Shown: positions 18,680 to 61,330 of the stretch, in pieces
Numbering within the stretch: position 1 is the first letter of the stretch
Layout: every line of letters begins with the position of its first letter
Assembly (NCBI GenBank): GCA_965224085.1
Contig: CBDCYI010000004.1
Span: 781,170-845,169, forward strand
Source: Candidatus Marinacidobacterales bacterium
Lineage (GTDB): Bacteria; Acidobacteriota; Vicinamibacteria; Marinacidobacterales; SMYC01
DNA length: 64,000 nt
Direction: 5' to 3'
Notes under the pieces: generated by a model
What the model saw: only the letters and a program-made list of their open reading frames with translations
Told to the model about the DNA's origin: nothing
The model's database searches: none
Translations under genes and position numbers: made by a program

Positions 18680-18689
18680 ACATCCTGGT

Positions 18690-18757
18690 CTGTGCGGAGG
18701 CCTGATCTGTGCGGAGGCCTGATCTGTGCGGAGGCCTGATCTGTGCGGAGGGATGAT
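18690..18757. repeat. 17-bp tandem repeat (CTGTGCGGAGGCCTGAT) x3 plus one degenerate copy
   Basis: Read directly from sequence: units at 18690-18706, 18707-18723, 18724-18740, and a degenerate unit at 18741-18757. Confidence 0.9.
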
Positions 18758-43990: not shown

Positions 43991-45175
43991 TCAACGCGAG
44001 AATGGCCCGGATTCTATCAAACGGCCGACGCGCAAATGAATCCAAGGGATCGTCCACGCGACCGCCGCGATGACCGCATCGGTCACATCGGGCGAGCGCC
44101 CCGGGACGAACTTTTGAAACCACTCCAGGAAGAGAACAGACAAGAATACGACTCCGATCCCGGTGGCCGCTACCCGCTCGGGACGGCTCGGTTGCGCGTG
44201 GATCGCAAGAACCGCGAGCCCGAGAAACGGCCAAACCGAGTTGAGCACGTCTTCGATACGCGTCAATTCGCTCACGAGATGACTTCGAAAGGGAGTCCAG
44301 TTGAACGCCGAGATTCCAGCCGCGCCGACGCCCGGTCGAAGCTGGTCGACGACGACGGTGCCCACAATGGCCGCGAAAGCGAGACGGGACACGCGCTCGG
44401 GCGCACGCAGAAAACCAGCGACGACAAAGGCGAGTCCGGCGCCGGCGAGCGCCTCGAGCGATAGTTGCTGGCGCACGATGGGCACTTTCGCGAGGAGCAC
44501 ACAGAAGAAGAACGCGGACACGAAGAAGCGGCGACGGTATTTCGACCGTAGCGCCGTGGACAACAGGATCGAGAGCGCCAAGATAGCGAGCCCATAACCG
44601 AGGGCGCTCGAGAACTCGAAAGACCGAGAGCCGCGTAGGACGTGCCACACCGGCCGAAGCCCCGCGCGGAGATTGCCGACGTCGGGAGAAGGCACGAAAG
44701 GAAAGAGTTGCCCGCCGGCCCAGACCCCGACGACCGCCGCACCGAGCCTCGTCACCGGCTCATCGACGAAGATGCGCGCTGCCGTTCGCCGAATCCAGGG
44801 TTCAAGCGCCGCGAGCTGCCGATGAACCACCGCGCCGCCGCACGCGCCGAGCGTGTTCCAGCCCCAGTCATGAAAAGAAGGAACACGACGCGGAAGAAAA
44901 GCCTGCAGATACTCGACCCCGAAGCTGAAAAGACTGCCCGCGAGCGTCGCCAAGAGCACAGTGCGCACGCGACCCAATCCCGCGAAAACGCGCGCGGCGA
45001 GCCAGCCGAACGGGATGTAGATGATCACGTTCACGACGAGGTCCGTGCGCGACAGCCGTCCCGGTTCCAGAAACTGATGCCACGCGCTGACGTCGAGTGC
45101 CCGCCAGCCAGTGAAGGGAAAGAGGCTTCCGTAAACGAGGAGGGCCGTGTAGCCGAGGAGAAATGCGCGGGTCAC
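43991..45175 (-). CDS. VanZ-like family membrane protein (tandem VanZ domains)
   Basis: Two repeats of the VanZ pattern (LLVYGSLFPF...NVIIYIPFGWL; second copy similar). Confidence 0.7.
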   Translation of the reverse strand: MTRAFLLGYTALLVYGSLFPFTGWRALDVSAWHQFLEPGRLSRTDLVVNVIIYIPFGWLAARVFAGLGRVRTVLLATLAGSLFSFGVEYLQAFLPRRVPSFHDWGWNTLGACGGAVVHRQLAALEPWIRRTAARIFVDEPVTRLGAAVVGVWAGGQLFPFVPSPDVGNLRAGLRPVWHVLRGSRSFEFSSALGYGLAILALSILLSTALRSKYRRRFFVSAFFFCVLLAKVPIVRQQLSLEALAGAGLAFVVAGFLRAPERVSRLAFAAIVGTVVVDQLRPGVGAAGISAFNWTPFRSHLVSELTRIEDVLNSVWPFLGLAVLAIHAQPSRPERVAATGIGVVFLSVLFLEWFQKFVPGRSPDVTDAVIAAVAWTIPWIHLRVGRLIESGPFSR

Positions 45176-45981
45176 GGAATCGAGCCCTGGAGGACGATGA
45201 CGTCATCATAGTGGCGGTTGGCGTCATTGGGGGTGTCGGGATCGAGATAGTAGGGCGTGATCGTGGCGCGATACGCCGATCCACCCTGATGTTCGATACA
45301 AACGCCGACATAGCCGTGACGACGATTGCCTTCGGGGTAGATGAAGCGTGAAAAGCCTTCCTGCCACTCCGGGTTCTCTTCCAGATCGCGCACATTAGCG
45401 ACACCGGCCTCGGCATACGGCTGCGCATGGGCCACGCGGTTGCCGCGAAGCGTCGTGTCGAGGCCATCATTGTCATGGTTCCCGAGCGCGGGGTAAACGG
45501 GCGTCGTGGCGGCGAAGCCCGCCATGTCCGGCCAAAACGCGTCCCAGTCGTCTTGAGCGTTGCCCTGATCGACGAGATCGCCCGCGTATAGAAGAAAGCG
45601 CGGCGCGTAAGTCGCGATCTGATCGAGAACTGCCCGCTGCGTGATATTGCGCACGGGCTCGGTCGCCTTTGATTCCGGATCGGCGGCGACGGCGAACGTG
45701 AAATCCGTTCCGAGCTCGACGGCCGTCGTGAAGTGCGCCGCCTCGGTCGACCCATCTTGGACGACTCGATAGAAATGGCGCATGTTCGATTGGAGACCCA
45801 TGAGTTGCACCTCATGGCGAAAGCCGGGAACGTGATCGAAGGCTTCGTGCGCGCTCGACACGCGTTCGCCGTAGCTATCGGACAGGCCCCATTCGAGCGT
45901 GCCGGGGGTATCGTTCTCCGACCACCAGACCATACGGATGCTGTCGGTGCTCACGAGTTGAACGTAAGGGCCGACGGTCAT
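45172..45981 (-). CDS. Purple-acid-phosphatase-like metallophosphoesterase, N-terminal half only (probably truncated or inactive)
   Basis: Fn3-like PAP N-domain (PYVQLVSTDSIRMVWW...) and motifs GDLVDQG, GNHDNDG. The downstream HxP/GHxH motifs are absent and the stop abuts the VanZ gene start. Confidence 0.5.
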   Translation of the reverse strand: MTVGPYVQLVSTDSIRMVWWSENDTPGTLEWGLSDSYGERVSSAHEAFDHVPGFRHEVQLMGLQSNMRHFYRVVQDGSTEAAHFTTAVELGTDFTFAVAADPESKATEPVRNITQRAVLDQIATYAPRFLLYAGDLVDQGNAQDDWDAFWPDMAGFAATTPVYPALGNHDNDGLDTTLRGNRVAHAQPYAEAGVANVRDLEENPEWQEGFSRFIYPEGNRRHGYVGVCIEHQGGSAYRATITPYYLDPDTPNDANRHYDDVIVLQGSIP

Positions 45982-47781: not shown

Positions 47782-48711
47782 TCAGCTCCGCGCGCGCGCC
47801 ATGAGAAGACGCACGAACGAAACATGTGGGTCCTCGTCATCCCAAAACCCGACGCGGCGAAGCTCGAAAGGATCGCTCGAGGCGTCGTTCGAACCGGAAA
47901 TCGTCGTCACCGCGCAGCAAAAACCTTCTTCGCGGAGGATCTGCTTCGTCGTTGCACCGAAATCCACGGACCGTCCATTGGGATAGGCAAAGGACGTGAC
48001 CTCGCAACCGAGCTCGGACTCGATCCGTTCTTTGGAGCCTTTCACCTGACGGCGGGCTTCCATCGCACTCACTTGGCTCAAGATAGGATGATCGAGCGTA
48101 TGGGCACCGAAACGTATGCCGGCGGCCGCCATTTCACGCGCGTCCGCCCATGTGAGCTTGTCCCAACCCACATCGCTCGAGTCAACCCCGAGCCGTTGCA
48201 AAAGGCGTGAGATAAGCTCGGAGCGCTCGTCGGGGCCCACGCAGCGCACTTCACCAAGGATGGCCGCAAGCTCATGATGTTTATCGGGAATCGGGGCGGT
48301 TGTACGATGAAAGGCATCGAAGATTCGATCGTGCCAAATCAACCGATTCGCGTCAACGGCGCCGGTGACCAAGAAGATCGTCGCGGGGAGCCCGAGCTCC
48401 CGCAGGATGGGGAAAGCGTGCGTGTAGTTGTCGCGATAGCCATCGTCGAAAGTGATGGCTATCGCGTTGGGAGGCGCACCGTTCGCTACAAGCGCCTCGA
48501 GCGGCTGCACGGAAAAGTACCGCTGCACGAGCTCCATCTGCTCCCGGAACATGCGTGTGGGGGTGCCACGGAAGAACGGATGGCCGTCGTCATTGACACG
48601 GTGATAGCAAAGCACGAGAAAGCGGTTGGGTCGTGTGAGCCCAACCAGACCACGTGCGAGCGTGGGAGCCCGTGCCGCGAGCCCGAGAACGCGCTTTGCC
48701 GAAGACTTCAT
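47782..48711 (-). CDS. Polysaccharide deacetylase (NodB-homology / CE4)
   Basis: ITFDDGYRDNY motif, HTLDHP. Confidence 0.8.
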   Translation of the reverse strand: MKSSAKRVLGLAARAPTLARGLVGLTRPNRFLVLCYHRVNDDGHPFFRGTPTRMFREQMELVQRYFSVQPLEALVANGAPPNAIAITFDDGYRDNYTHAFPILRELGLPATIFLVTGAVDANRLIWHDRIFDAFHRTTAPIPDKHHELAAILGEVRCVGPDERSELISRLLQRLGVDSSDVGWDKLTWADAREMAAAGIRFGAHTLDHPILSQVSAMEARRQVKGSKERIESELGCEVTSFAYPNGRSVDFGATTKQILREEGFCCAVTTISGSNDASSDPFELRRVGFWDDEDPHVSFVRLLMARARS

Positions 48712-49279
48712 GTCTCGCTATCGTATCCGAACTGTGCTGTGCAAGTTTCTCGACATCACGCGGACGCCGGAGCAAGCCGACCTCATCTTCGTCTTCGCGG
48801 GGCGCGAGGAGCGAAAGCGTTACGGGATCGAGCTCTACGAGAAAGGCTACGCTCCACGCCTGGTTCTCAGTGTCGGCCGCTTCGAATGGCGCCGCTTCGC
48901 CGAGCTTGGACTAGCGAGTGACGGGGGCCTCGTCGAAATGGTCCCCACGATCGAGGCACCCAAGCGCCACTTCTTGGTCGAGATCGAAGATGAGAAAACC
49001 ACTTGCCACGGGATCGCGCGCGACCGCTACGGAACGCTTTCCGAAGCTCGCGCCCTGGCCATCCACGTGAAAGACGGTAAAGCCATGACCATCTTGCTGG
49101 TCTCGTCGCCGGAACACTCGAGACGATGTCTTCTGGCGACGAAAAGCGTCATTTCCCCGCGCCACCGATTGATACCCATCGGGTGCGCTCCTTCCAGGGA
49201 CTCGTGTGCCCACGAGTTCGTGAAGTGGATAGGCTATCGCGCGCTGACGTCGCGAGTTGCACGGGGTAGTAATTCTTGA
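48710..49279 (+). CDS. DUF218 (YdcF/ElyC/SanA-like) protein
   Basis: DLIFVFAGREERKRYGIELYEKGYAPRLVLS. Its ATG at 48710 shares the CATG tetranucleotide with the divergent deacetylase start. Confidence 0.6.
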   Translation: MSRYRIRTVLCKFLDITRTPEQADLIFVFAGREERKRYGIELYEKGYAPRLVLSVGRFEWRRFAELGLASDGGLVEMVPTIEAPKRHFLVEIEDEKTTCHGIARDRYGTLSEARALAIHVKDGKAMTILLVSSPEHSRRCLLATKSVISPRHRLIPIGCAPSRDSCAHEFVKWIGYRALTSRVARGSNS

Positions 49280-49358
49280 TATAAAATAGTGAAGCCCTTT
49301 CCAACCAGGGGAATTTCGAAGGACAAAAACGGCTGTACTTGCAGCCAAGTGCTTTAGA

Positions 49359-49392
49359 TTGACACACATGTAAGCCGACTCCGGGTTATAAT
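49359..49392 (+). promoter_or_regulatory. Candidate promoter (TTGACA ... TATAAT) upstream of the Wza-like gene; spacer is non-canonical at 22 nt
   Basis: TTGACA at 49359-49364, TATAAT at 49387-49392, in an AT-rich island. Confidence 0.2.
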
Positions 49393-49478
49393 GGAGGGTC
49401 GATGTGGCGCGATTTTGGGGAGTTACCCCTGGCCCCCGCTTTCGAGGCCTTCGAAATTCTGAGGAGTCGTTTCGAAAA

Positions 49479-50058
49479 GTGAAGCTCAAATGTGCGCTCA
49501 TCATCTCTGCCACAGCCCTGGCGCTGGCGGCAAACGCTTCGGCGCAGCAAGGCAACCCGGACCCGCGTCAAAGGGGCCCGGAGGCTTACATCATCGGTGC
49601 GGGAGACTTGATCCATGTCCTGACAAGAAGACAACTTCAGTGGCTCGTTCCAAGTCCGCTACGACGGCAAGATCACCTTGCCGCTCGTCGGCGACATTTT
49701 GGCCGCGGGCCGAACTCCAGAACAACTCGCGGAACATTTGGAAGAGCAGATCGGAGTCCTCGTGGAGCTCGCCCAGGTCACGGTATCGATCGATCAGGCC
49801 AACAGCGCGCAATTCTACGTCATCGGCAAGGTTGCCAAACAGGGCGCTTTTCCGTACATCGGCGAAATCCGTGTGGTTCAAGCGCTCGCGCTCGCCGGCG
49901 GTTTTCAGGAATTCGCGAGGCTGAGCAATATTTTCGTGATCCGCGAAACGCAGGGACGGCTTATCTACTATCCGTTCAACTATGACGACCTCGTCGGCAA
50001 GCGTCAGCTGGGTGGCAACATGATTCTGCTCCCTGGAGACACGATCGTCGTTCCCTAG
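49479..50058 (+). pseudogene. Polysaccharide export protein (Wza/Poly_export + SLBB-like), +1 frameshift in an AAGAAGA tract at 49624-49630
   Basis: Signal peptide + YIIGAGDLIHVLT in frame 0, then FSGSFQVRYDGKITLPLVGDILAAGRTPEQL...GDTIVVP in frame +1. GTG 49479 (SD GAGGAG) or ATG 49404 are candidate starts. Confidence 0.65.
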
Positions 50059-50059
50059 T

Positions 50060-50900
50060 ATGCGTGCATCATGTGCAACAGCGATGGCCGTAATCATCTC
50101 TTCGATGGCAAGCTGGAGCGAAGGCCAAACGCCCCCTAATCAATGGAGCTTAGGATTGAGTCTTCGTGAATCCAGGCAGTTCGATCGCGTCGTCAATGAC
50201 GGGCTGGGGGATGGCCGGATTACGGACAGCGCTAGCGTCAATTTCGGCTACTCGACCAATCGTGAGCGCTCGAGCCTCTCTTTGTTCGCGCGCGGGAGCG
50301 AGCTTTCCTAGAGCCGAAGAAGAGCGCAACCGCCCGATCAATTTTGGTTTGGGTTTGCGTTGGAGTCGGCGGGTGACGGAGCGTTTTCAATCTTCGATGC
50401 GTGTGACGGCCAACCGAAACTTCTCCCGCGAGAGGCTAACGGAGCTCGGCATCGTCGCGCCCGACCTGGAGAGTTATTCCGCGGGTGCGAGTTGGCGCAC
50501 ACAGTACCAGGCGAGTGCACGCACCGGCATGTCGACGTCGCTCAGCTACCGGTTCACGGACATCGTGAATGCACAGCCGATCCCTGGCTCTCAAATCGTT
50601 CTCGAAGAGCAACCTTTCGGCGACAGCTTGTCTATTCCCGCGGGAATCGACGTCGACGCGAACGTGCCGGTTCGGGATGGTCAGAATGACGTTCTAGACA
50701 TCCTCGCTGCCGAAGGACTCGACAGCCTAGCGAATCGCAGCCAATTTGCATCCGCCGGCTTCGGCCTGAGCCGTACGCTGTCCCAACGCACGTCGATCGG
50801 CTTGAATGTTTCGGCCGGCTATCGAATTTTGGACAGGGGCAGAAGTGACGGAGGGTCGAACGCGTCGGGGGGGGGTTCACATACAGCGTTCTCTGGGAAC
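50060..50900 (+). pseudogene. Putative outer-membrane beta-barrel protein of the EPS locus, frameshifted near 50300 and 3'-truncated by IS insertion near 50900
   Basis: Signal peptide (MRASCATAMAVIISSMASW), alternating beta-strand-like segments ending in aromatic residues (SLSYRF, NVSAGYRIL). The reading frame runs into the poly-G at 50871-50879 and then into IS-derived sequence. Confidence 0.4.
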
Positions 50901-50914
50901 GACGAGCTCATTGA

Positions 50915-51699
50915 GCGCAGCCTACAATGTCGGACGTACGCTCGCGATTGTGCCGGCGACCATGGTGTTTCATCTGTCATCTAGGCAGAGCGAGGGATTG
51001 CTGCGATCGTTGTTCGCTCTGATGAAGCTAGACAATGATGTGCCCGATCACACCACGATCTCGAGGCGCAAGGCGAAGCTGGGTAAGGTCCCCTTCTACC
51101 AAGACAAGCAGAAGACGCCGTTGCACATCTTGATCGACAGCAGCGGTCTCGCTGTCCACGCCGGCCAGCTGCGCAGAGCACCAAATAGCAGAGACTATCG
51201 CAAGCTCCATCTGTGTGTCGACGAGCAGACTGGCGAAGTCGTCGCTTGCGAGCTGACGAGCAAAAGAGCCCGCGATTCATCGCGGGTTGCATCGCTTGTC
51301 GGACAGAGCGACAGTCCCATCTCATCGGCCAGAGCTGACACCGCATACGACGCCAGCGGCGTCTATGAGGCAATCGAGAATCACAGCGCTCATCGCTCGC
51401 CGAGGGTGCTGATACCGCCGCGCAAGGGCGCCCAGCTCGCATCGGGGCCGGCGAGCAGCCGACAGCGCAATCGCAACATTGCAGCACAAGCTCGGCTCGG
51501 CAAACGAAAGTGGCACACAGAATCGGGCTACAGCAAACGGAGCAAAGTCGAGACAACGTTCCATCGCTACAAGGCTATCGTGGGCTCAGCGATGCGAGCG
51601 AGAGGGTTGGCGGCACAGAGAGTCGAGGCAAGGATCGGGTGCAAGATTCTCAACACCATGACGGCGCTCGGGATGCCTGATAGCGAGATGATCGGATGA
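50915..51699 (+). mobile_element. IS5-family (IS903-group-like) transposase remnant, 5'-truncated
   Basis: LLRSLFALMKLDNDVPDHTTISRR...LHILIDSSGLAVHAGQ...RKLHLCVDEQTGEVVACELT...DTAYDASGVYEAI...YKAIVGSAMRARGL... matches the IS903-type DDE transposase from about residue 60 onward. The N-terminal ~60 aa are missing and the upstream sequence reads through from the host gene. Confidence 0.7.
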
Positions 51700-51929
51700 T
51701 GGGAGTCGGGGCCAAGCGAGCTCTCGGCCTCTATCGGAGTTGTGCACCAAGGCACGACAGTGGCGGCAAAGGAGAAAGTGAAGCCATGCTCTCCAACAAC
51801 GACGGCTATCTCGCAGGCCGCGGCTGCGAGACGCGTTCAGAATGGATCCCGAAACACAGCCACTTCGATCAAGTGAGCCCGTACCATTGGAGTGCAGTAA
51901 CGATCGCCACCTAACTCGAGCAGAGCCCA

Positions 51930-52115
51930 CAATCCGAAGGTACCCGCTCCCCGAGTAACGCCAACTTGACAGCAATGGCATCGCCCGGGCGGGCGAAGGT
52001 AATCGGAGACTGACCCTTTGAGATCTGTGGGAGGAAGTAGACTCCGATCGAGTGCAGCCGGGAGTCAAGGCCGAAGGTACGATGGTGCTCAGTGCCCGTT
52101 TGACAGCAAGGTCTG
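51930..52115 (+). ncRNA. Structured non-coding 5' region of an IS110-family element with a direct-repeat pair; candidate bridge-RNA locus
   Basis: CCGAAGGTAC (51934-51943, 52071-52080) each followed after 19-22 nt by TTGACAGCAA (51966-51975, 52100-52109). There is no ORF; it lies immediately upstream of the IS110 transposase gene. Confidence 0.3.
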
Positions 52116-52221
52116 GAGGGTTAGCGGGAGTATCCGTGGTGGCATGTCGCGAGGCATGACCCCGTTCGAAAGAATGTTTTGAATCGCCCCTCTCTCCTGG
52201 TTGCGCCGAAAGGAGCGAGAA

Positions 52222-53610
52222 ATGGCACGTCGCGTCAGGACAAAAAGCAGTCGTCAAGCAAGACGGAAAAAATTGGAGCACGAGCTCGACACGGTAAATC
52301 TAGATGCTGCAGGGATTGATATTGGAGCGGAGTCAATCGTGGCGGCAGTCCCGAAGGGGCGCACTCCTGAGGGCGAACATGTCCGCACGTTTCAGAGCTT
52401 TGTATGCTCGCTGCGAGAGCTGGCCAATTGGCTGAAGGCGTGCGGCGTGTGCACGGTGGCGATGGAGTCGACCGGAGTTTATTGGATTTCACTGTACGAG
52501 TTGTTGGAAGACGAGGGATTTGAAGTCTATCTGGTCGATGCTCGCAAAGTGAAAAACGTATCTGGGCGCAAGTCAGACGTGTCGGATGCGGAGTGGCTGC
52601 AACAGCTGCATACATTCGGGCTACTCCCAAAAACCTTTCGGCCGGAATCGGCGATTTGCGAGCTAAGGGCATACACCCGCCAACGAAGCTCGCTGGTGGA
52701 GTCAGCGGCTCGCCACATTCAGCATATGCACAAAGCGCTCAACCAAATGGGGCTCCAGCTACAACACGTCCTGCGCGACGTGACCGGAGTCACCGGCCTT
52801 GCGATCATCCGAGCGATCTTGAGAGGAGAGCGAGATCCTCGTGACCTAGCAAAACTGAGGCATGAACGTTGCCACAACGATGAGGCCACGATCGCGAAAG
52901 CCTTAGAAGGTAACTATCGGAGCGAGCATGTTTTCGCTCTTCAACAGTCGGTGGAGTTGTACGATTTCTATCAAGAGAAAATGGAAGACTGTGACAAGCG
53001 GATCGAGAGATGCCTGTCCAAATTGGAGACCCGGCCTCAGGACGCTCGGCCTAAGCCGAAACCACGGACACGGCGAGCGCGTAGCGGCAACGGGCCGCGC
53101 TTTCCGCTCGCTGAGTCTCTATTGGGACTCACGGGGGTGGACCTAACCAGGGTTCCCGGCTTAGGTAGCTATGCCGTTCTGCAGCTCGTAGGAGAAACCG
53201 GTTGCGACATGAGCCCGTGGAAAAGTGACAAGCACTTCACCTCATGGCTAGCTCTCGCACCGAATAATAAGGAGTCCGCTGGTCGAATCTTTCGCCGGGC
53301 CACCCCAATGAGCTCCAGTCGTGCTGCAAAACTCTTTCGCCTCGCCGCGTGCGCTGTCCGCAATACCCAAACCGCGCTCGGCGCTTTCTATCGACGAATC
53401 CGATCGCGACGAGGTGCTCCAAAGGCCATCACAGCTACCGCCCGTAAAATAGCGACCATCTACTTCCGCATGCTTGCGACTGGAGAGGAGTTCATTGAGC
53501 TCGGTCAGGACGCCTATGAAAGGCAATACCAGCAACGCCTCCTGAGTAATCTCCGACGCAAAGCTACCCGACTCGGCTTCAGCCTCGTTCCCGATCAATC
53601 CATATCATGA
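52222..53610 (+). CDS. IS110-family transposase (DEDD_Tnp_IS110 + Transposase_20)
   Basis: AGIDIGAES...VAMESTGVYW (RuvC-like DEDD N-domain) and a C-terminal Tnp_20 domain. The ATG at 52222 carries SD AAAGGAG; local GC is lower than the flanks. Confidence 0.85.
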   Translation: MARRVRTKSSRQARRKKLEHELDTVNLDAAGIDIGAESIVAAVPKGRTPEGEHVRTFQSFVCSLRELANWLKACGVCTVAMESTGVYWISLYELLEDEGFEVYLVDARKVKNVSGRKSDVSDAEWLQQLHTFGLLPKTFRPESAICELRAYTRQRSSLVESAARHIQHMHKALNQMGLQLQHVLRDVTGVTGLAIIRAILRGERDPRDLAKLRHERCHNDEATIAKALEGNYRSEHVFALQQSVELYDFYQEKMEDCDKRIERCLSKLETRPQDARPKPKPRTRRARSGNGPRFPLAESLLGLTGVDLTRVPGLGSYAVLQLVGETGCDMSPWKSDKHFTSWLALAPNNKESAGRIFRRATPMSSSRAAKLFRLAACAVRNTQTALGAFYRRIRSRRGAPKAITATARKIATIYFRMLATGEEFIELGQDAYERQYQQRLLSNLRRKATRLGFSLVPDQSIS

Positions 53611-53786
53611 AAAATGCCTTCGGCCGGGAGTGTCAGTCGAAAGTACCGTCAGGAAACGGCGTGCGACTCCTTGCGGAGCAGCCCGTGCCAATGCAGCGAC
53701 AAACCCAGAGAACGATGGTGGTTTTCCAGTACTCGCGCTCCGTGTCGTCGAACCTTGCACGATCTCTGTATGACAGAAAGAAGGTT

Positions 53787-53996
53787 CTATCCGGGCGCGC
53801 CGGCACTTCGGGCTGAATTCCTTTCGTAGTGTTGAGAAATGGAATCGTCTACTGAGATGGGGCCTTCAGCGATCCGCTCGGCGAGCGTTTGACCTTCGAC
53901 GAGCTCGAGAACGAGTGCGTTCTGCTCGAACCGAGAAATACTCGCAATGTTCGGATGATTCAGAGATGCGAGCAGCTTCGCTCCCGGGGACAGTGG
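53787..53996 (-). pseudogene. Ser/Thr protein kinase catalytic-domain fragment (subdomains IV-V only)
   Basis: AKLLASLNHPNIASISRFEQNALVLELVEGQTLAERIAEGPISVDD matches the kinase subdomain IV-V consensus (L.HPNI...L.LE.VEG.TL...GP). It lacks both N- and C-terminal parts and is flanked by IS110 and vapC. Confidence 0.5.
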
Positions 53997-54080
53997 CATG
54001 ACTCGATGTCTACCCGCGCCGAAGCATCGACGCGAAGAGTACAAACAAGTCGTGCAGACGAGTACCACGGAAATGGGCGC

Positions 54081-54503
54081 CTAGCGATCGTGCCAGTCTT
54101 CGATCGTCAGTCCGTCAAAGCCTTGATAGTCTCTGACGTTGGCCGTCACGAGCACCAACGCATGGACACGGGCGACGGCTGCAATTTGCCCGTCGGCGAA
54201 GGAAGGCGTATTGCCCGAGGCGGTCAGCCGCACTCGCTCCGACGCGTGCCACACGGCCGCAGCGTCATCGTAGCCGAGAACGGGAACGTGAGGACCGATC
54301 ACGTTCCTGAGGTACGCTTCGAGCGACGATCGTCGGCGCGACGGTTCGAGCCGATAGCAGCCGAACCAAAGCTCGTGCCAGACCACCGATGCGGTGGCGA
54401 TGCGTCCTTCGGCTTCGACGATTCTTTTCTGAACCCGCGGATTCGGTGTTGGCTTCGCCGGCTCGGAGAGAACATTGGTATCGAGAAGGTACGTGAGCGT
54501 CAA
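54081..54503 (-). CDS. vapC: Type II toxin VapC (PIN-domain ribonuclease)
   Basis: LLDTNVLSE acidic PIN motif; 4-nt overlap with the upstream antitoxin. Confidence 0.85.
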   Translation of the reverse strand: MTLTYLLDTNVLSEPAKPTPNPRVQKRIVEAEGRIATASVVWHELWFGCYRLEPSRRRSSLEAYLRNVIGPHVPVLGYDDAAAVWHASERVRLTASGNTPSFADGQIAAVARVHALVLVTANVRDYQGFDGLTIEDWHDR

Positions 54504-54790
54504 AGGCGAACGTCCCGCCCCCGTGACCGATCGCGTACGCCGTCGTAGGCGGCCTCGATGTCCAGTTCCTCGAGGTCGACATTTCTCCTGAAGTCGTCGA
54601 TGGCACGACTCAGCGGGACGGAGCGCTTCATCTGGGCGTCATACCGATCCGTCGCGATGAGCACGGCCACCGGCTCGCCACGCCGCGTCAACGTCACGAT
54701 CAAGCCGCGCTCGGCGTCGCGCACGAGCGACGGAAGGTTCTCCCGTGCCGCCGAGATGGATACCTCTTTCCTCTGCTCCACGATGTACAT
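54500..54790 (-). CDS. vapB: Type II antitoxin, Phd/YefM family (VapB)
   Basis: SISAARENLPSLVRDAERG..IVTLTRRGEPVAVLIATDRYD matches the YefM fold consensus. Confidence 0.75.
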   Translation of the reverse strand: MYIVEQRKEVSISAARENLPSLVRDAERGLIVTLTRRGEPVAVLIATDRYDAQMKRSVPLSRAIDDFRRNVDLEELDIEAAYDGVRDRSRGRDVRL

Positions 54791-54806
54791 TATATCTGTA
54801 CATTAC
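54785..54806 (-). promoter_or_regulatory. Direct repeat TAATGTACA x2 overlapping the vapB start; candidate autoregulatory operator and leaderless promoter
   Basis: Minus strand reads TAATGTACAGATATAATGTACATCG; the TATAAT-like hexamer ends at the initiating ATG, and the two TGTACA palindromic hexamers are 6 nt apart. Confidence 0.35.
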
Positions 54807-55029
54807 ACTGATTTCAATGGGAGACGGGCGCGAGACAATCTCATTAAACGCCGAGCTAAGTGGCATGGGCTCGATGATCTACCTTCCCGCTAACCTTTTC
54901 TCAGTCAGTATGAAACGACCAGCTCCGTGACGTAGCGTCGTGGATTAGGCTACGGAACGGAAATCTCAGTGGCCCAGAGCCACGATACGAAAGGAGCTGG
55001 TCGTATGAAGGATTGTACCTTTACTAGGA

Positions 55030-55272
55030 TTGGATGTACATGCGGAGACGATAGCGGCGTTTGTGGCGGACGAGGACGGCACGGAACGCAATCTGGGCGT
55101 GGTTGCTCACCGTCCGTCGTCGATCGAAAAGCTGTTGAAGAAGGTCGGCTCGAAGGAACGCATCCACGCGGTCTATGAAGCCGGTCCGACGGGGTACCAA
55201 TCTCACCTGAGCGATGGGTTCGTCGAATCGATGTCGCAAACCCAGAAATACTACAATCTTTCAAAGATCTAG
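55030..55272 (+). mobile_element. IS110-family transposase N-terminal fragment (80 aa)
   Basis: MDVHAETIAAFVADEDG...VYEAGPTGY matches the start of IS110 transposases; the rest is missing. Confidence 0.6.
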
Positions 55273-55376
55273 GCCCGAGCTCAATAGCAATGACGTTCGT
55301 GAGGCCATTCGAGATCCCTTCCGCACAACCTAGTAGGGGCTAGCGCGTCCCTCGACGGACGTCGGTATAATTCTTT

Positions 55377-56009
55377 GTGGCTGGGCTTCCCTTTGACGAT
55401 CATTTTCGGGAGCGCGTATCGGAGCATCTCGATCGCTTCGATCGGCGCGCGATAGCACCCGACGCTCTCACACGGGCGGCGGTCGCGATCGTGCTCGTCG
55501 GCGACAGTATGGGTGAAGCCTCGTTCATCTTGACTCGCCGGCCGCCCAACCTTCGTCGACACGCGGGACAATGGGCGTTGCCCGGAGGCCGTTGCGACGA
55601 TGGCGAGAGCCCGATCGACGCCGCACGGCGAGAGCTCGAAGAAGAGGTCGGTGTCAGCCTCGACCACGAGAGCGCCGTCGGCCGTCTCGATGACTTTAAG
55701 ACACGCTCGGGCTTTTTGATCACGCCTGTCGTCTTCTTTGGACCGAGCGAGCCCGCGCTACGCCCCGACCCCACCGAGGTCCACGCCGCCTATGTCGTCC
55801 CGCTCAAAGTCCTCGAGGCACCCGACGTTCCGACCATCCGGGAGAGTGCAACAAGCGTCCAACCCTTGATTTCTATAACAGTCGAATCGCTGGGCACAAC
55901 GATCTGGGCGCCGACGGCGGCGCTGCTCTTCCAAACACGCGAAGTCGTCGTTCACGGCCGTTCGACGCGCGTGGCACATTTCGAGCAACCACGTTTCGCG
56001 TGGAAGTAG
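55377..56009 (+). CDS. NUDIX hydrolase (CoA pyrophosphatase-like)
   Basis: Nudix box GGRCDDGESPIDAARRELEEEVGV; LTRR...LRRHAGQWALPGG as in CoA pyrophosphatases. Confidence 0.75.
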   Translation: MAGLPFDDHFRERVSEHLDRFDRRAIAPDALTRAAVAIVLVGDSMGEASFILTRRPPNLRRHAGQWALPGGRCDDGESPIDAARRELEEEVGVSLDHESAVGRLDDFKTRSGFLITPVVFFGPSEPALRPDPTEVHAAYVVPLKVLEAPDVPTIRESATSVQPLISITVESLGTTIWAPTAALLFQTREVVVHGRSTRVAHFEQPRFAWK

Positions 56010-56030
56010 CTCGCGCGGCAGCTCTCTGAG

Positions 56031-56252
56031 TCACGCCACCTTTCGCTCGATGCCCTCTTGAACTTTGAACTCTGCGACGAGGCTTCTCAGCTCCGCGGCC
56101 ATTCGAGAAAGCCCGTCCGCTGCACTTTGGGTCTGGCTGACGCCGGCCGAGGCGCTCTGCGCCGCCTCAGCGACACCGACGATGTTCTGAGCGATCTCGC
56201 TACTGCCCTTGGCCACCTCAGCGACGTTCCGCCCCATCTCATTGGCCGTCAC
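56031..56252 (-). pseudogene. Methyl-accepting chemotaxis protein C-terminal fragment (last ~70 aa of the signalling domain)
   Basis: EVAKGSSEIAQNIVGVAEAAQSASAGVSQTQSAADGLSRMAAELRSLVAEF matches the MCP signalling-domain tail; there is no upstream HAMP, ligand or transmembrane region. Confidence 0.55.
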
Positions 56253-56312
56253 AAACTGCTCCTCGACGGCACTGGCAATGACATTTTGGGCGTCATTTAT
56301 TTGGCCAATGAT

Positions 56313-57398
56313 CTAACCGCGCTGCGTGCGTTGGCGGAGCGCGTGATCGGCGAGGGTCACCGCCATCATCGCTTCGGCCATCGGGACGAACCGCGGCAAG
56401 AGGCAGGGGTCGTGCCGCCCTTTAGTAGCGATCGTCGTGGCCTCACCTTCGCGGTTCACCGTTTCTTGTTCCCGGGGAAGGCTGCTCGTCGGTTTGACCG
56501 CACACCGCAGCACGATAGGCATGCCCGACGAGATGCCGCCTAGCATTCCGCCATGTCGATTGGTGCGGGTCACGATGCGCTCGCCGTCGCGCGTCAACAC
56601 GTCGTTGGCTTCGCTTCCCCGCATCGTCGCGACGCCGAAGCCCGCGCCGTACTCGACGCCCATAACGGCGGGAAGGCTCAACATGGCCTTTCCGAGATCG
56701 GCCTTCAGCTTGTCGAAGACGGGCTCGCCCCAACCCGGAGGGACCCCCGTCGCAACGATCTCCGAGATACCACCAACAGAATCGCGCGCGCGCCTAACCT
56801 CTTCAATGAGCGCAATCATCTCCTCCGCGACGGCAGCGTCGGGACAACGCACGATGTTGGCCTCCACGGCCTCGAGCGTCACGGCATCCGGATCGGGCAC
56901 CTCCGCCACCAGGTCTCCGATCTGTTTCACATAGCCGACGATACGCACGCCGAAAAGCTCACCAAGAAGCTTCTTCGCCACCGCACCGGCAGCGACCCGC
57001 ACGGAGGTTTCGCGCGCGCTCGAGCGGCCGCCGCCTCTATAGTCACGGAAACCGTATTTCGCGTCGAACGTCAGATCGGCGTGTCCGGGGCGATACTTGT
57101 CGCGGTTCTCCGAGTAGTCGCTGGGCCGTTGGTCTCGATTGCGGATGCTTATCGCAATCGACGTCCCCGTCGTCTTGCCGTCGAAGACTCCGGATAGAAT
57201 CTCGGGGGCATCCGCCTCTTGGCGCTGCGTGGTTACTTTGGACTGGCCCGGACGACGCCGATCTAGATCGGGCGTGAGGTCCGACTCCGAGAGCGCGAGC
57301 CCAGGCGGAACTCCGTCGATGATGACGACGTAGCCCGGCCCGTGGCTTTCGCCCGCGGTCGTGATCCGAAGACACTGGCCGAAACTGTTTCCAGGCAT
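56313..57398 (-). CDS. aroC: Chorismate synthase
   Basis: [32 protein letters not shown], and full-length similarity. Confidence 0.95.
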
Positions 57399-57406
57399 GG
57401 CCTATG

Positions 57407-57982
57407 TTACTTCGGTCGAGACGGAAAGGTAGGCGCAACGCAAAGATAAGAAAGAGGCACTGCGTCCGCGAGCCACACACCGTTGTCGGAGACCAACAAC
57501 GTGTACCCGTCCGCAGCCATTGCGTGGGCGTCGACCTCGAGGATGATGATCTCGCCCTTGCGCCGGGCGCCGACGCGGCAAGCCGTCTCCACATCCGGAG
57601 ACAGGTGCACGTGGTGGCGGCTCATCGGGCGCAAACCGCCGCTCGCTTGAATCTTGGCCCACTTCTCGCTCGTCGTGCCGTGAAACAAGTGGGCAGGCGG
57701 CTTCTGTGGTGTCGAAGACACGGCGTGAACGTAGGAGACGCTGTGCCCTTGATTGGCCCGCACCTGCCCATCCCGGAGCGTGTAGCGTTTCTTGTCGTCG
57801 TTGGCGACGATTTCCTGAAGCGCCTCCATCGTGAACTGTGGGTAGCGAGGGCGCATGGCGCTCACAAGCTCGGCGGCATCGACGTAGCCCGATGGGTCGA
57901 GCCTCACCCCGATCTCTTCAGGACGGTGACGCAACACGTAGCAAAGAAACTTGCTGACGTCCCGACGGATCCACTCAGGCAC
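57407..57982 (-). CDS. kptA: RNA 2'-phosphotransferase (Tpt1/KptA family)
   Basis: SKFLCYVLRHRPEEIG...GYV, HGT..., and HVHLS motifs of Tpt1; its start abuts the stop of the upstream ligase gene. Confidence 0.85.
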   Translation of the reverse strand: MPEWIRRDVSKFLCYVLRHRPEEIGVRLDPSGYVDAAELVSAMRPRYPQFTMEALQEIVANDDKKRYTLRDGQVRANQGHSVSYVHAVSSTPQKPPAHLFHGTTSEKWAKIQASGGLRPMSRHHVHLSPDVETACRVGARRKGEIIILEVDAHAMAADGYTLLVSDNGVWLADAVPLSYLCVAPTFPSRPK

Positions 57983-59665
57983 TTAGGCCTCGGATCCGGG
58001 GAATCGAATCAGCTTGCCCCGAATCCGCCCGCCAATGAGGGCGGAGTCCCACGCGATGCTAACAGGCGTGAGGTGCGGCGCGCGGGAGCGGATGAAACGC
58101 CCACGAGTAAAAGCCGGCGTCCCTTCCGGAGGCTCCGAAACGGCTCTTTCGATCTCGCCCGGTGCCACCAGGAACCGGTGCACGTTTCCGGTCGCCGCGA
58201 ACTTCTCCGCATATCCTTCTTCGAGCTCGTGATAGCGAAGATCGATCGTCTTGAGCATCGCGAGGTCATTCTCATCGCCACAGGCCTCGAGAAGATAACG
58301 CTTCGTCACCCAGTCGAGGCGCCCGACGAGCCGCGACATCTCTTTGCGCTCGAGAGCCACGAGCACGTCTTCCCATTGCTCCACGACTTCGGACGCCTCG
58401 AGTGAGGTCGTCTTCGACGCGCTCAAAAAGCCTTTCGCTTTCTCGAGGTAGTAGCGCTGAAGCTCTAAGGCGCTCACCTCGCCGCGATCGCTCTGCACCA
58501 CGGCTTCGAGGCTAGGATCCGCCGTTAGCGCGTGAAGTGCGGCGACGGGTTTCGGGAGGTTCGGAGCGTCGCGGAGCCAGCCGGCTTCGGCCATATCGAT
58601 CACGAGCGCGGTCGTCCCCATTTTCAAGAACTCGGTGTCCTCCAGCATGCTGGAATCCGCGAGGCCGAGTTGCAGGCGTTGCCGCCGGCGAAACAAGCTC
58701 AGGAGCGGCAATATGTGGAAATGCGCCGCCGCGAGGGCCGGCTTCATCAAGTTACCGGTATCGAAGATCGCGCGGTCGTTAGGGCTGATCGAAAAACGCA
58801 TTTTTCGCTTGATCGCCGGCGCTTTTTCGGACAGCACGAAACGCCCGTCTGGCTCGACGCTTCCCGAACCGCTCAGCACGGGACGCGACACGAGAAATGC
58901 CAGCGTCTTTTGTCGCACGCGGCGGAAGGCGAAAAGACGGAGCAGCAAAGAAAGGGCTGCAATGACAGGCAAGGTCACAACATAGCTCAGCCAATAGAGG
59001 AAGCGTCCGAGTAGGTTCTCGAGCTTGTGATCTTCGAGCGACGTGAGACGAGCAAACCATCGGCGGTGTCGCAACGGCGGAAGCGCCGCCACGATGGCCG
59101 CAGCCGTTCCGACGACGATGGCCGCGACCAGGAGCGCCATGAAGACCAACCAGCCGAGGACCACCGTCGCTGCGAGAAGCGGCATGAGGAGTGTGAGGCC
59201 AAGCCGGTACAACCAGAGCACGCGGCCGGGGGCGACCCGGCATTCGAAGCTCTCCTGCGCGCCATAGACATGCCCTTCGACGTCACGGCAGTTTTTCAGA
59301 AGCCCGAGGCGACCGGGAAAACCGCTAGAACCGAGCTCCTGCTCGGCTTCGGGGATCGCTTTGCGGAGAAGCGATTCCTGAGCTTTCTGGTAGAGCAGGA
59401 GCTGCCCCGGCCCGCGACATTCGGGCGTGGCGCCTTCGATGAGACCGCCTTCCACATGGTAAGGCAGATACTCGTAGTGAAAGGCGCCACCATTCTCTGT
59501 GAAGATCTGGGGCCGCTCGGAGTACATGCCCGGCTCGGTGCGAACCCGTCTCCCGATGGCACGGGCCAACGAGTCGTAGATTCTATCGTTTCCTGGATGA
59601 GCGAAATCGGGAGAAAAGCGAATGGCGTATTCAGTCTCCTGTCCCATCAGGCGACCGAACAACAC
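57983..59665 (-). CDS. Pup-ligase/deamidase (PafA/Dop) family protein with a ~100-aa hydrophobic insertion (predicted 3 TM helices)
   Basis: N-terminal RLMGQETEYAI (PafA RIMGIETEYG motif) and GATPEC. C-terminal half aligns with PafA/Dop (LVIDMAEAGWL, SALELQRYYLEKAKGF, RLDWVTKRYLLE, IDLRYHELEEGY, TRGRF...). Residues ~150-250 read VLWLYRLGLTLLMPLLAATVVLGWLVFMALLVAAIVVGTAAAIVAAL...LYWLSYVVTLPVIAALSLLLRLFAF; GTG start. Confidence 0.75.
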   Translation of the reverse strand: MLFGRLMGQETEYAIRFSPDFAHPGNDRIYDSLARAIGRRVRTEPGMYSERPQIFTENGGAFHYEYLPYHVEGGLIEGATPECRGPGQLLLYQKAQESLLRKAIPEAEQELGSSGFPGRLGLLKNCRDVEGHVYGAQESFECRVAPGRVLWLYRLGLTLLMPLLAATVVLGWLVFMALLVAAIVVGTAAAIVAALPPLRHRRWFARLTSLEDHKLENLLGRFLYWLSYVVTLPVIAALSLLLRLFAFRRVRQKTLAFLVSRPVLSGSGSVEPDGRFVLSEKAPAIKRKMRFSISPNDRAIFDTGNLMKPALAAAHFHILPLLSLFRRRQRLQLGLADSSMLEDTEFLKMGTTALVIDMAEAGWLRDAPNLPKPVAALHALTADPSLEAVVQSDRGEVSALELQRYYLEKAKGFLSASKTTSLEASEVVEQWEDVLVALERKEMSRLVGRLDWVTKRYLLEACGDENDLAMLKTIDLRYHELEEGYAEKFAATGNVHRFLVAPGEIERAVSEPPEGTPAFTRGRFIRSRAPHLTPVSIAWDSALIGGRIRGKLIRFPGSEA

Positions 59666-59685
59666 CGACGTGGCGTGGCGACGCG

Positions 59686-59835
59686 CTATTCGCCGCCCTC
59701 GGGCACGATGGTCTCGCTGAGGTAGCGATCCTTGAGGGTGCGAGCGTCCTTCGCGATCTCGAGGATAATTCGCTGAGCGCTGTGCTCGCGCGCGTCGTGC
59801 TCTTCTTCGATTTCAAATTCGAGGATGGGTTCCAT
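59686..59835 (-). CDS. 49-aa acidic protein ending in -PEGGE; candidate Pup-like modifier (not in ORF track)
   Basis: Manual translation gives MEPILEFEIEEEHDAREHSAQRIILEIAKDARTLKDRYLSETIVPEGGE*. SD GGAG lies 11 nt upstream of the ATG at 59835; the stop is 20 nt before the ligase start. C-terminal Gly-Gly-Glu as in Pup(E). Confidence 0.5.
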   Translation of the reverse strand: MEPILEFEIEEEHDAREHSAQRIILEIAKDARTLKDRYLSETIVPEGGE

Positions 59836-59977
59836 GAGTGTTCACACTCCTACTTCGCTACGTCCACCATACCACAGTCTGCCATTCGCTGCAGCCTCAG
59901 CACGGCCACCAGCCGGAGCCGGCGCTCTGGAGTTGCGCGTTTCTAAATTGATCTCTTCGAGCGCACATCGTGTCGGG

Positions 59978-61330
59978 CTAGCCAAGAACCGCCTTGACGG
60001 ATTCGGTGATGGTTTCCACCGTCCGGTCGATTTCAGCGTCCGTGATAACCGCCGGCGGCGCGATGCAATAGACGTCGCCGCGAACCCTCGAGAAGAGCCC
60101 CCGCTGGTCGGTCTCGGCGAGAAGCTGGGGGCCGATTTTATCGGACGGCGGAAATTCCTTTTTCGTTGCTTTGTCCGCGACCATCTCGACGGCGCACATC
60201 AGCCCGAGGCCGCGAACCTCTCCAACGTGCGGGTGGCTCTCGAGCGCCCTACGCAAGCCGTCGTTAAGCCTTTTGCCTTTCTTCCCCGCCGCCTCCACGA
60301 GGCCTTCACGCTCGATGATGTCGAGGTTGGCCAGCGCGATTCGGCAACCGACGGGATGGGCGCTGTACGTGTACGCGTGCATCCAGATCGTATCGCCTTG
60401 GTTCAGCACGTCCGACACTACGTCGCTGATCCCAATGCCGCCTAGCGGAAAGTAGCCGGACGTGACGCCTTTCGCGAACTGGATCATGTCCGGCTTTACG
60501 CCCCAATGCTCGAGTCCGAACTTCGTCCCCGTGCGGCCGTAACCCGTGATGACTTCGTCCGCCACGAGAAGCACGTCGTACTGGTTGCAGATTTCGCGGA
60601 TGCGGTCGAAATAATCGTCCTGCGGCACGATCACGCCGCCGGCGCCTTGGACGGGCTCGGCAAGGAACATCCCCACCGTATCCGGTCCTTCCGCGAGAAT
60701 CGCTTTTTCCAGCTCGTTCGCAGCCGCGACACCTTGGCTCGTGCCCTCGGGCGCTTCGTAGCGATAAGGATACGGCGAGGGGATATGGACGAAGCCCGGC
60801 ACCCGCGGCTCGAACATCGGCCAATAGCTCTTGATGCCCGTGGCGCTCATCGCCGCGAGCGTCACTCCGTGATAGCCCCACTGGCGCGAGATGACCTTGG
60901 TCTTTTCGGGCTCGCCTTTGAGCTTCCAGTAATAGCGCGCGGTCTTGAAGCAGCTATCGCTCGACTCACCGCCGCCCGAAGTGAAGAAGAAATGATTGAT
61001 GTTCGGATAGGCCCACTCCGATAAGCGTTCTGCGAGGTCGATCGCGGGACGGTTTGTGCTTCCGGAATATCCCGAGCAGTAGCCGAGCGTGCTCATCTGA
61101 TCGGAAGCCACCTGCGCGAGCTCCTTGCGCCCGTGTCCGGCGAACACGTTCCAGAGGCCGGAGAGGCCGTCGATATATTCCTTCCCGTCCAAGTCGTAAA
61201 GACACGCTCCCTCTCCACGTGTCCAGACGTGGCCTTTTTCGTGGGCCGCGGGATTGTGGAGCGGGTGGATAAGATGCGCCTGGTCGCGCGCAAGAAGGTC
61301 GCCTTTCTTTCGGGCTTCGGAGGTTGCCAT
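59978..61330 (-). CDS. Class III (omega) aminotransferase
   Basis: PLP motifs DEVITGYGRTG, FAKGVTSGYFPLGG; full-length. Confidence 0.9.
   Translation of the reverse strand: MATSEARKKGDLLARDQAHLIHPLHNPAAHEKGHVWTRGEGACLYDLDGKEYIDGLSGLWNVFAGHGRKELAQVASDQMSTLGYCSGYSGSTNRPAIDLAERLSEWAYPNINHFFFTSGGGESSDSCFKTARYYWKLKGEPEKTKVISRQWGYHGVTLAAMSATGIKSYWPMFEPRVPGFVHIPSPYPYRYEAPEGTSQGVAAANELEKAILAEGPDTVGMFLAEPVQGAGGVIVPQDDYFDRIREICNQYDVLLVADEVITGYGRTGTKFGLEHWGVKPDMIQFAKGVTSGYFPLGGIGISDVVSDVLNQGDTIWMHAYTYSAHPVGCRIALANLDIIEREGLVEAAGKKGKRLNDGLRRALESHPHVGEVRGLGLMCAVEMVADKATKKEFPPSDKIGPQLLAETDQRGLFSRVRGDVYCIAPPAVITDAEIDRTVETITESVKAVLG

Follow-up and report, generated by a model that had tools for sequence, protein, structure and literature searches.

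A stretch of 64,000 nucleotides (nt) from a Candidatus Marinacidobacterales bacterium, referred to below as the window and the frame of all coordinates unless another locus is named, contains a polysaccharide-export locus that breaks off inside an outer-membrane beta-barrel gene, where it meets a fragment of an insertion sequence (IS) of the IS5 family. Comparison with orthologous loci makes it probable that the region 50961-56312 is an IS-rich deletion and rearrangement junction with mobile-element debris, and not an island lying in a working locus. It corresponds, in reverse orientation, to a section of an 8.7 Mb metagenome contig (ENA ERZ25072076, ctg246125, 29x coverage). Weak evidence from synteny and naming makes this uncultured, soil-type genome probably acidobacterial (Vicinamibacteria-like). 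On the left side it was compared with loci L004 (from a 4.1 Mb contig) and L005, found via the contigs of barrel homologues, and on the right side with loci L093-L096, reached through homologues of the chorismate synthase gene aroC at 95-98% identity. L096 lies on the same 4.1 Mb contig as L004 and its aroC is that of a 95% relative; L093-L095 are close strains (aroC 98% identical), L095 coming from a different sample, and L019 is a distant Vicinamibacteria genome. The features on the left side, up to and including the IS5 fragment, are as follows.

47782-48711, minus strand: polysaccharide deacetylase gene, intact, 309 aa (PF01522 at 87 bits)
48626/48734-49279, plus strand: DUF218-like gene, intact, 181 aa (PF02698 weak, 23 bits against a cut-off of 27.6)
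49479-50058, plus strand: Wza-like export gene (XrtA/PEP-CTERM-type), pseudogene with a 5-bp deletion at about 49616
50060-50962, plus strand: remnant of an outer-membrane beta-barrel gene of a TIGR03016-related family, with codons 1 to about 297 of about 460 kept
50961-51754, plus strand: 794-bp fragment of an IS5-family element, nt 294-1087 of an element of about 1088 bp

The joint between the last two features can be placed to the base pair. Barrel homology extends to 50962, the position at which nucleotide homology with L005 also stops, and IS5 homology begins at 50961, leaving a 2-bp overlap, ‘CA’. The IS5 fragment is 98.5% identical to a full copy (L097 2728-3521), which is about 1088 bp long, encodes a 321-aa DDE transposase and has 19-bp terminal inverted repeats (CTGCCTTGGTGCACAACTC). 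Relative to this copy the window element is without the left inverted repeat, the first 293 nt and the first 76 codons; at 51754 it ends in an intact right inverted repeat, making it a fragment with a right end only. What is left of the transposase reading frame ends at 51699 and belongs to the DDE family (NF033579 at 187.8 bits against a cut-off of 140, matched from profile position 54, with PF01609 and PF13737 also matched). The preliminary description of this DNA had the barrel gene running straight into a 5'-truncated IS5 transposase, which the comparison with the full copy bears out. Transposition would leave a complete IS end beside the target. The joint is internal to both the barrel gene and IS5 and carries 2 bp of microhomology, which marks it not as a transposition end but as the product of illegitimate recombination: a deletion reaching from the barrel gene into a pre-existing IS5 element. 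A 297-aa open reading frame (ORF) crosses the joint (50806-51699, plus strand), in which the third frame of the barrel gene, entered after the shift in a run of nine G (G9), is fused in frame to the IS5 transposase from Met77; it probably arose with the deletion and has no meaning of its own. No pieces of polysaccharide genes were found near other IS5 or IS110 copies.

The orthologous loci show what the truncated locus looks like when it is whole. In L004 the order is VanZ, metallophosphatase, CitMHS, deacetylase, DUF218-like gene, an IS1380 insertion, Wza-like gene, barrel gene and a 530-aa XrtA-type chain-length determinant, followed by a tyrosine autokinase, PrsT, an amidotransferase, a CapK-type ligase and glycosyltransferases. 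The PrsT of L004 scores 330 bits with TIGR02917 (cut-off 312), and the other genes of its export set are strong sub-threshold matches; its intact Wza-like orthologue, of 192 aa, for example, matches TIGR03027 at E 1e-37, below the cut-off of that family. L005 keeps the same order up to a cut-off unannotated ORF just past the barrel gene, and in both loci the gene after the barrel starts within 15-26 bp. When all L004 proteins were compared with the whole window by tblastn, the flanking genes were found at 77-93% identity, the Wza-like gene was split over two frames and the barrel gene over three, with the match ending at residue 297, and no L004 gene from downstream of the barrel was found anywhere in the 64 kb. 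Missing from the window are the chain-length determinant, tyrosine kinase, PrsT, amidotransferase, CapK-type ligase and glycosyltransferases; the XrtA/PEP-CTERM set (export protein, chain-length determinant, tyrosine kinase, PrsT and amidotransferase) stands together in L004 and not in the window. Neither exosortase nor PEP-CTERM proteins turned up in the 21 kb of L004 or in the window, no search having been aimed at them in either. The preliminary description had proposed comparison with an uninterrupted orthologous locus, and this confirms that the barrel truncation is real (452-462 aa in L004 and L005); the locus does not resume beyond the IS zone.

Of the genes that survive, the deacetylase is the first of the stub and is 86% identical, over its full length, to its L004 orthologue; an identical 309-aa product is encoded in two independent short contigs. 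The DUF218-like gene has 75% identity to that of L004, and a 181-aa gene stands at the matching position in L005 and L003. In the Wza-like gene the C-terminal part matches PF02563 (Poly_export), PF10531 (SLBB) and PF22461. Three full-length homologues of the barrel were found, of 429-462 aa, that of L004 having 462. Eight of 24 aligned barrel relatives match TIGR03016 (PEP-CTERM-associated outer-membrane protein; best E 1e-11), and neither the L004 orthologue (P0004) nor the barrel ORFs of the window have an NCBIfam or Pfam match themselves. An AlphaFold2 model of P0004, made from 24 sequences, is a 20-strand barrel (predicted local distance difference test score 87, predicted template-modelling score 0.82) whose top listed PDB fold matches are outer-membrane barrels. 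The window barrel stops at the start of strand 12, so that the last nine of the 20 predicted strands are gone. The family is small, with 63 representative clusters among 1.84 billion proteins, and TIGR03016 is reached only by its distant members.

In addition to being truncated, the export genes carry frameshifts. DNA alignment of the Wza-like gene with L004 and L005 shows a 5-bp gap at about 49616. Against the same orthologues the barrel gene has a 2-bp deletion in a GC repeat at about 50292, an in-frame 3-bp deletion at about 50327, and one extra G in the G9 run, which lies at 50867-50875 and not, as the preliminary description placed it, at 50871-50879. Since three frameshifts fall within 1.5 kb and two of them lie outside homopolymers, they point to real decay rather than read error, and we read both the Wza-like and the barrel genes as pseudogenes. 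About nine neighbouring genes, with about 11 kb of coding sequence, have the lengths seen in relatives and no frameshift, the single exception being an in-frame internal deletion in the metallophosphatase gene. The inactivation of export that had been suspected from the sequence is more thorough than was claimed, with three frameshifts that had been missed and nine of 20 strands lost. It follows for metabolic readings of this genome that the Wza-like and barrel genes are not to be counted as exopolysaccharide-export capacity, and that the remainder of the polysaccharide cluster is absent from this locus.

An assembly artefact is also conceivable, with a repeated insertion sequence at which the contig was wrongly joined and with long-read errors behind the frameshifts. 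This would suit a single metagenome contig at 29x coverage in which IS5 and IS110 are multi-copy, near-identical repeats, in which one frameshift falls within a G9 homopolymer, and for which there is no independent assembly over the pseudogenes, a 98-aa SLBB product being found only in the source contig. We nevertheless regard it as highly improbable. The join across the IS110 element is reproduced in L095, from a different sample; a repeat-mediated chimera would leave IS5 whole, whereas here it is cut at nt 294 and continues into a unique gene; deletions of 5 and 2 bp are atypical of read errors; and the neighbouring coding sequence is frameshift-free over its roughly 11 kb.

Two further observations concern the surroundings of the polysaccharide locus. 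The metallophosphatase gene (purple-acid-phosphatase-like, 45172-45981, minus strand) encodes 269 aa compared with 444 aa in L004, residues 207-371 having been lost in frame; this deletion is taken as real because the same short product is found in an independent short contig (L002). In the relative with the intact locus, the IS1380-family insertion between the DUF218-like and Wza-like genes (L004 7646-9181) has a counterpart on the same contig near aroC, where a 100% identical IS1380 transposase adjoins the AdoHcyase gene (L096 14585-16120).

To the right of the IS5 fragment the following features were delimited, of which aroC is the first certainly native gene of the right side.

51755-51961, no strand: spacer A, 207 bp, the last 57 bp of which resemble the left flank of another IS110 copy
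51962-53647, plus strand: complete IS110-family element, 1686 bp (invariant block among copies 51966-53647), composed of a left end (51962-52221, 260 nt, non-coding), a recombinase gene (52222-53610, 462 aa) and a right end of 37 nt
53648-54080, minus strand: spacer B, with a short Ser/Thr-kinase-like fragment at 53787-54068 (weak match)
54081-54503, minus strand: PIN toxin gene (PF01850 at 47.2 bits, above cut-off)
54500-54790, minus strand: Phd/YefM antitoxin gene (PF02604 at 40 bits, above cut-off)
54791-55376, plus strand: spacer C, the spacer of lowest guanine-plus-cytosine (GC) content, 0.529
55030-55272, plus strand: N-terminal fragment of an IS110-family recombinase (PF01548 at E 0.008 and NF033542 at E 3e-4; weak)
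55377-56009, plus strand: NUDIX hydrolase gene, CoA pyrophosphatase-like (PF00293 at 71 bits)
56031 to about 56312/56315, minus strand: chemoreceptor-like C-terminal fragment (weak matches)
56313-57398, minus strand: chorismate synthase gene aroC (PF01264 at 452 bits)

By domain matches, the genes and gene order of the preliminary description (export genes, IS5, IS110, toxin-antitoxin pair, NUDIX) are all present. Its kinase fragment, second IS110 fragment and chemoreceptor tail are where it put them, as weak matches only.

The right-hand side is native to another part of the chromosome in relatives. The order aminotransferase, Pup-ligase-like gene, KptA, aroC is kept in L093-L096, and L019 has the same order without KptA. 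In L096 these four genes are followed by NUDIX, a 166-aa gene, AdoHcyase, the IS1380 insertion, a VCA0040-like gene, an Exo_endo_phos gene and an M3 peptidase gene, and in L019 aroC is followed by AdoHcyase, the VCA0040-like gene and the M3 peptidase gene in that order. Because it is kept in the distant L019, the arrangement aroC-AdoHcyase-VCA0040-like-M3 peptidase appears to be ancestral. The window is without AdoHcyase and the M3 peptidase, and also without the AXE1 and SNF2 genes that are found downstream in the close strains L093 and L094. The NUDIX gene had been described as island cargo. It adjoins aroC in L093-L096, with nucleotide homology between the window and L096 beginning at 55340, and because of this adjacency in relatives it is a native neighbour of aroC and not cargo. 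A single contig of the closest large relative has aroC at 2.78-2.80 Mb, about 1.1 Mb from its polysaccharide locus (1.66-1.68 Mb), a distance that is 5.3 kb in the window. A scan of GTDB genomes with aroC gave best matches just 79% identical, and synteny was found in L019 alone, the downstream genes of which are unrelated to the window.

These comparisons bear directly on the earlier proposal that a horizontally acquired island of mobile elements and a toxin-antitoxin pair was inserted into, and split, a continuous polysaccharide-export locus. The composition of the IS110 element is what such an island would be expected to bring: its GC content is 0.563 against a window mean of 0.609 (standard deviation 0.017 over 1686-bp windows), the lowest in the window, and its GC at third codon positions is 0.60 compared with 0.69-0.75 in neighbouring genes. 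Insertion sequences and a toxin-antitoxin pair are clustered within 5 kb, and the region 51755-55340 is absent from L096. The drop in GC and codon usage noted from the sequence is thus real and foreign-looking. However, it is modest, and the toxin and antitoxin genes are native-like in GC (0.615 and 0.643); the polysaccharide-export remnant is itself low (0.58-0.59). Moreover, there is no polysaccharide gene on the far side, the left junction, internal to the barrel gene and IS5, coincides with no element end, relatives also have NUDIX beside aroC, and no direct or inverted repeats delimit an island. Target-site duplications had been suggested as a check; a search of the window for these, for inverted repeats and for other IS copies found nothing meaningful. 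We therefore think an inserted island very unlikely, and prefer the deletion and rearrangement junction.

For such a junction the loci compared directly show where the barrel is truncated, the microhomology, the frameshifts, the lack of downstream polysaccharide genes in the window, the boundaries of the insertion sequences with the identity of their copies, and the gene order in relatives. From these we infer the course of events, the extent of the deletion and a decay of the export genes after their partners were lost. The ancestor would have had an XrtA/PEP-CTERM-type cluster of deacetylase, DUF218-like gene, Wza-like gene, 20-strand barrel, chain-length determinant, tyrosine kinase, PrsT and more genes, with an IS5-family element located somewhere downstream in the same orientation. 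A microhomology deletion would have fused barrel codon 297, or thereabouts, to IS5 nt 294, removing the rest of the barrel gene and the intervening DNA. One or more larger rearrangements would have brought the stub beside the aroC-NUDIX neighbourhood, and the orphaned Wza-like and barrel genes would then have decayed by the 5-bp deletion, the 2-bp deletion and the additional G. IS110 and other insertion sequences may have kept arriving in the junction zone. Also lodged there are an intact Phd/YefM-PIN pair and short putative remains of three genes, for a kinase, a chemoreceptor and a second IS110 recombinase. The IS110 element of the junction is multi-copy and probably active at present; judging from family membership, it would encode an RNA-guided recombinase and have a structured non-coding left end.

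Several points weigh against this reconstruction. One long-read assembly provides the link between the stub and spacer A: L095 stops 24 bp before the IS5 end is reached, and 49458-51777 is covered by no contig of independent origin. The additional G in the G9 run, taken alone, could be a homopolymer sequencing error. The barrel is just 58% identical to its L004 orthologue, compared with 77-93% for the flanking genes, which may reflect either pseudogene drift or the normal fast evolution of the family. The absence of the missing polysaccharide genes applies to the window, and they may survive elsewhere in the 8.7 Mb contig, in which case there was translocation and not loss. Finally, the macro-arrangement of the relative could itself be derived.

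Strains that differ by just 1-2% in sequence carry different insertion sequences at this synteny breakpoint. L095 shares window positions 51778-54947 at 99% (the IS110 element, kinase relic and toxin-antitoxin pair) and 55196-60000 at 98.6%; it differs by a 1023-bp insertion sequence at 54943-54948 and by 1489 bp that stand in place of window positions 55033-55195. L093 and L094 have, at the position of the toxin, an IS3-family element and a UPF0236 gene, the latter being ISLre2-type by our reading. The site at 54943-54948, upstream of the antitoxin gene, is empty in the window, occupied by a 1-kb DDE insertion sequence in L095 (13784-14806) and by a 2.8-kb block with the IS3-family element in L093 and L094 (13784-16610), and looks like a local insertion hot spot.

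The intact element of the junction belongs to the IS110 family on the evidence of its recombinase (PF01548 at 88 bits, PF02371 at 34.7 bits, NF033542 at 257.9 against a cut-off of 140). It has neither terminal inverted repeats, none linking its ends at 51962 and 53647, nor a multi-bp target-site duplication, its flanks having no direct repeat in common. Six other places hold a copy that is identical except at base 4 (C, G or T) or, in one copy (L011), at base 1, and three of the six are on the same 8.7 Mb contig. The variable start reads CAA[n]TTGACAGC (window 51962-51965; 2741-2744 in L007-L012), a pattern that suggests a target origin of bases 1-4, which would then not belong to the element proper. 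With the element boundary marked by a slash, the flanks in the window are non-canonical, ...AACGC/CAAC on the left and GTACC/GTCAGG on the right, compared with ...CCAGCT/CAAn and GTAC/CT in two other copies. They could reflect half-matched recombination, bridge recombinases being known to use half-matched sites (bioRxiv 10.64898/2026.08.31.748434), or a later rearrangement. Four core or crossover models were considered (CT before CAA; nT after CAA; CC; insertion without duplication), none of which fits all five insertion sites. Elsewhere in the genome, at 2.89 Mb, IS110 copies are nested (L012 2741-6789): an intact copy abuts a reversed, internally deleted copy that is split by an ISAzo13-type element.

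The same flanks raise the possibility that two distant loci were fused by the IS110 recombinase itself, acting under RNA guidance, or by homologous recombination between IS110 copies, leaving the element with flanks from different sites. Bridge recombinases are able to catalyse inversion and excision (PMC11208160), which together with their use of half-matched sites and the rearranged copies at L012 would provide a means. On balance we find this unlikely. The polysaccharide locus breaks at the barrel/IS5 joint, 1 kb to the left of IS110, with microhomology and no IS110 end; no consistent core or target model emerges from the five sites; and the same flanks are present in L095, so that any such event would be old. 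A deletion at the barrel/IS5 joint, followed by larger rearrangement, remains the preferred reading.

The left end of the IS110 element contains a candidate structured RNA. Positions 52061-52192 are conserved ahead of the recombinase gene in 43 relatives (nhmmer E <1e-3; 46-63% protein identity), and the RNAalifold consensus fold of 17 sequences has 28 pairs, of which 11 show compensatory changes, and a single clear internal loop, enclosed by stems, whose two arms of 11 nt are hypervariable. Folded alone, the sequence does not outperform its shuffled versions (z = -0.43), and an Rfam scan of 48000-58000 with E up to 1 gave no match. In the window copy the 5' arm of the loop, GAAGGUAC, has a same-sense match in the terminus of the right end, GAAAGTAC, as expected of the left donor guide under the IS621 model (PMC11208160). 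Among relatives the 5' arm gave no signal over background when compared with the sequence downstream of the recombinase stop codon. In five of seven subgroups the 3' arm repeats the left-end terminus in the same sense (9/9 positions in the window, L098 and the L137 group, 8/9 in L104 and L114, among loci L098-L177), with no enrichment of antisense matches; the right donor guide of IS621, by comparison, is antisense (PMC11208158). A guide search under IS621 rules gave ambiguous donor matches, and no target-binding guide was assigned. Because the 3' arm is same-sense and variation is confined to bases 1 and 4, this element and its soil-metagenome relatives may use a donor-recognition geometry unlike that of IS621, through a variant bridge-RNA architecture with another strand-pairing rule or another crossover position, a suggestion from sequence comparison that we consider rather unlikely to hold. 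As a bridge-recombinase subfamily distant from IS621, these elements are of some use: the set of seven copies with mapped flanks, plus 80 related loci, makes up a small natural data set on target choice.

The remaining contents of the junction are mostly relics. For spacer A the one match is L095, arranged in the same way; compared with the flank to the left of the second L012 copy its similarity is 78%, and its end contains CCGAAGGTACC, a motif present also inside the IS110 left end. The kinase-like fragment of spacer B matches NCBIfam PknB at E 9e-4 over residues 30-77 and has no Pfam match; the segment is found in L095 at 98% identity. Joining spacer A to spacer B with IS110 removed restores no convincing gene. 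The toxin and antitoxin genes form an intact type II pair, with the antitoxin gene upstream and overlapping the toxin gene by 4 bp. As an origin for the second IS110 fragment, a relic of the complete element is ruled out, the recombinases being unrelated by pairwise comparison. The chemoreceptor-like fragment, which reads in frame right after the aroC stop codon TAG, matches chemoreceptor C-termini in the PDB by phmmer at E 0.011-0.055, with no Pfam MCPsignal match even at E up to 1; it lies between aroC and NUDIX in L093-L095 and is absent from L096. Outside the junction, the window has short tandem repeats of a 17-nt unit (about four times) and a 34-nt unit (twice), at 18684-18751 and 29684-29751.

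All components of the region are of known families, and IS-associated decay at a synteny breakpoint is an ordinary phenomenon; the same-sense arm of the candidate IS110 left-end RNA is the one feature out of the ordinary. Nothing here alters current understanding, and the practical value of the analysis is the corrected functional reading of the export genes. The full copy at L097 conforms to IS5-family elements with DDE_Tnp_1_5 and DDE_Tnp_1 domains (NF033579 type); of such an element the window retains a 3' fragment that lacks the left end and is dead. The predicted toxin-antitoxin pair shares with VapBC-like type II modules a PIN toxin and an overlapping upstream antitoxin, and at 59.3 against 140 bits with NF047863 the toxin falls outside the tRNA(fMet)-specific VapC equivalogs. 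XrtA/PEP-CTERM-type loci combine a TIGR03027 export protein, a TIGR03007 chain-length determinant, a TIGR03018 tyrosine kinase, TIGR02917 PrsT, a TIGR03108 amidotransferase and a TIGR03016 outer-membrane protein. This gene set is found in one operon-like run in L004, with most family scores below the curated cut-offs, whereas in the window the deacetylase and DUF218-like genes are accompanied by just two broken export genes.

With IS621-like IS110 elements (Durrant et al. 2024, PMC11208160; Hiraizumi et al. 2024, PMC11208158) the complete element shares DEDD/RuvC-like and Tnp domains, the lack of terminal inverted repeats, a long non-coding left end with a short right end, and a conserved left end whose candidate fold, predicted from its relatives, places a loop with variable arms between conserved stems. 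It differs from IS621 in its same-sense 3' arm, in flanks that fit no simple CT-core model and in matching no Rfam family. Considered as a whole, the region has nothing distinctive when set against known IS-rich plasticity zones and cases of IS-associated gene decay, with which it shares nested and truncated insertion sequences, gene relics, strain variation at one spot and pseudogenes beside the break.

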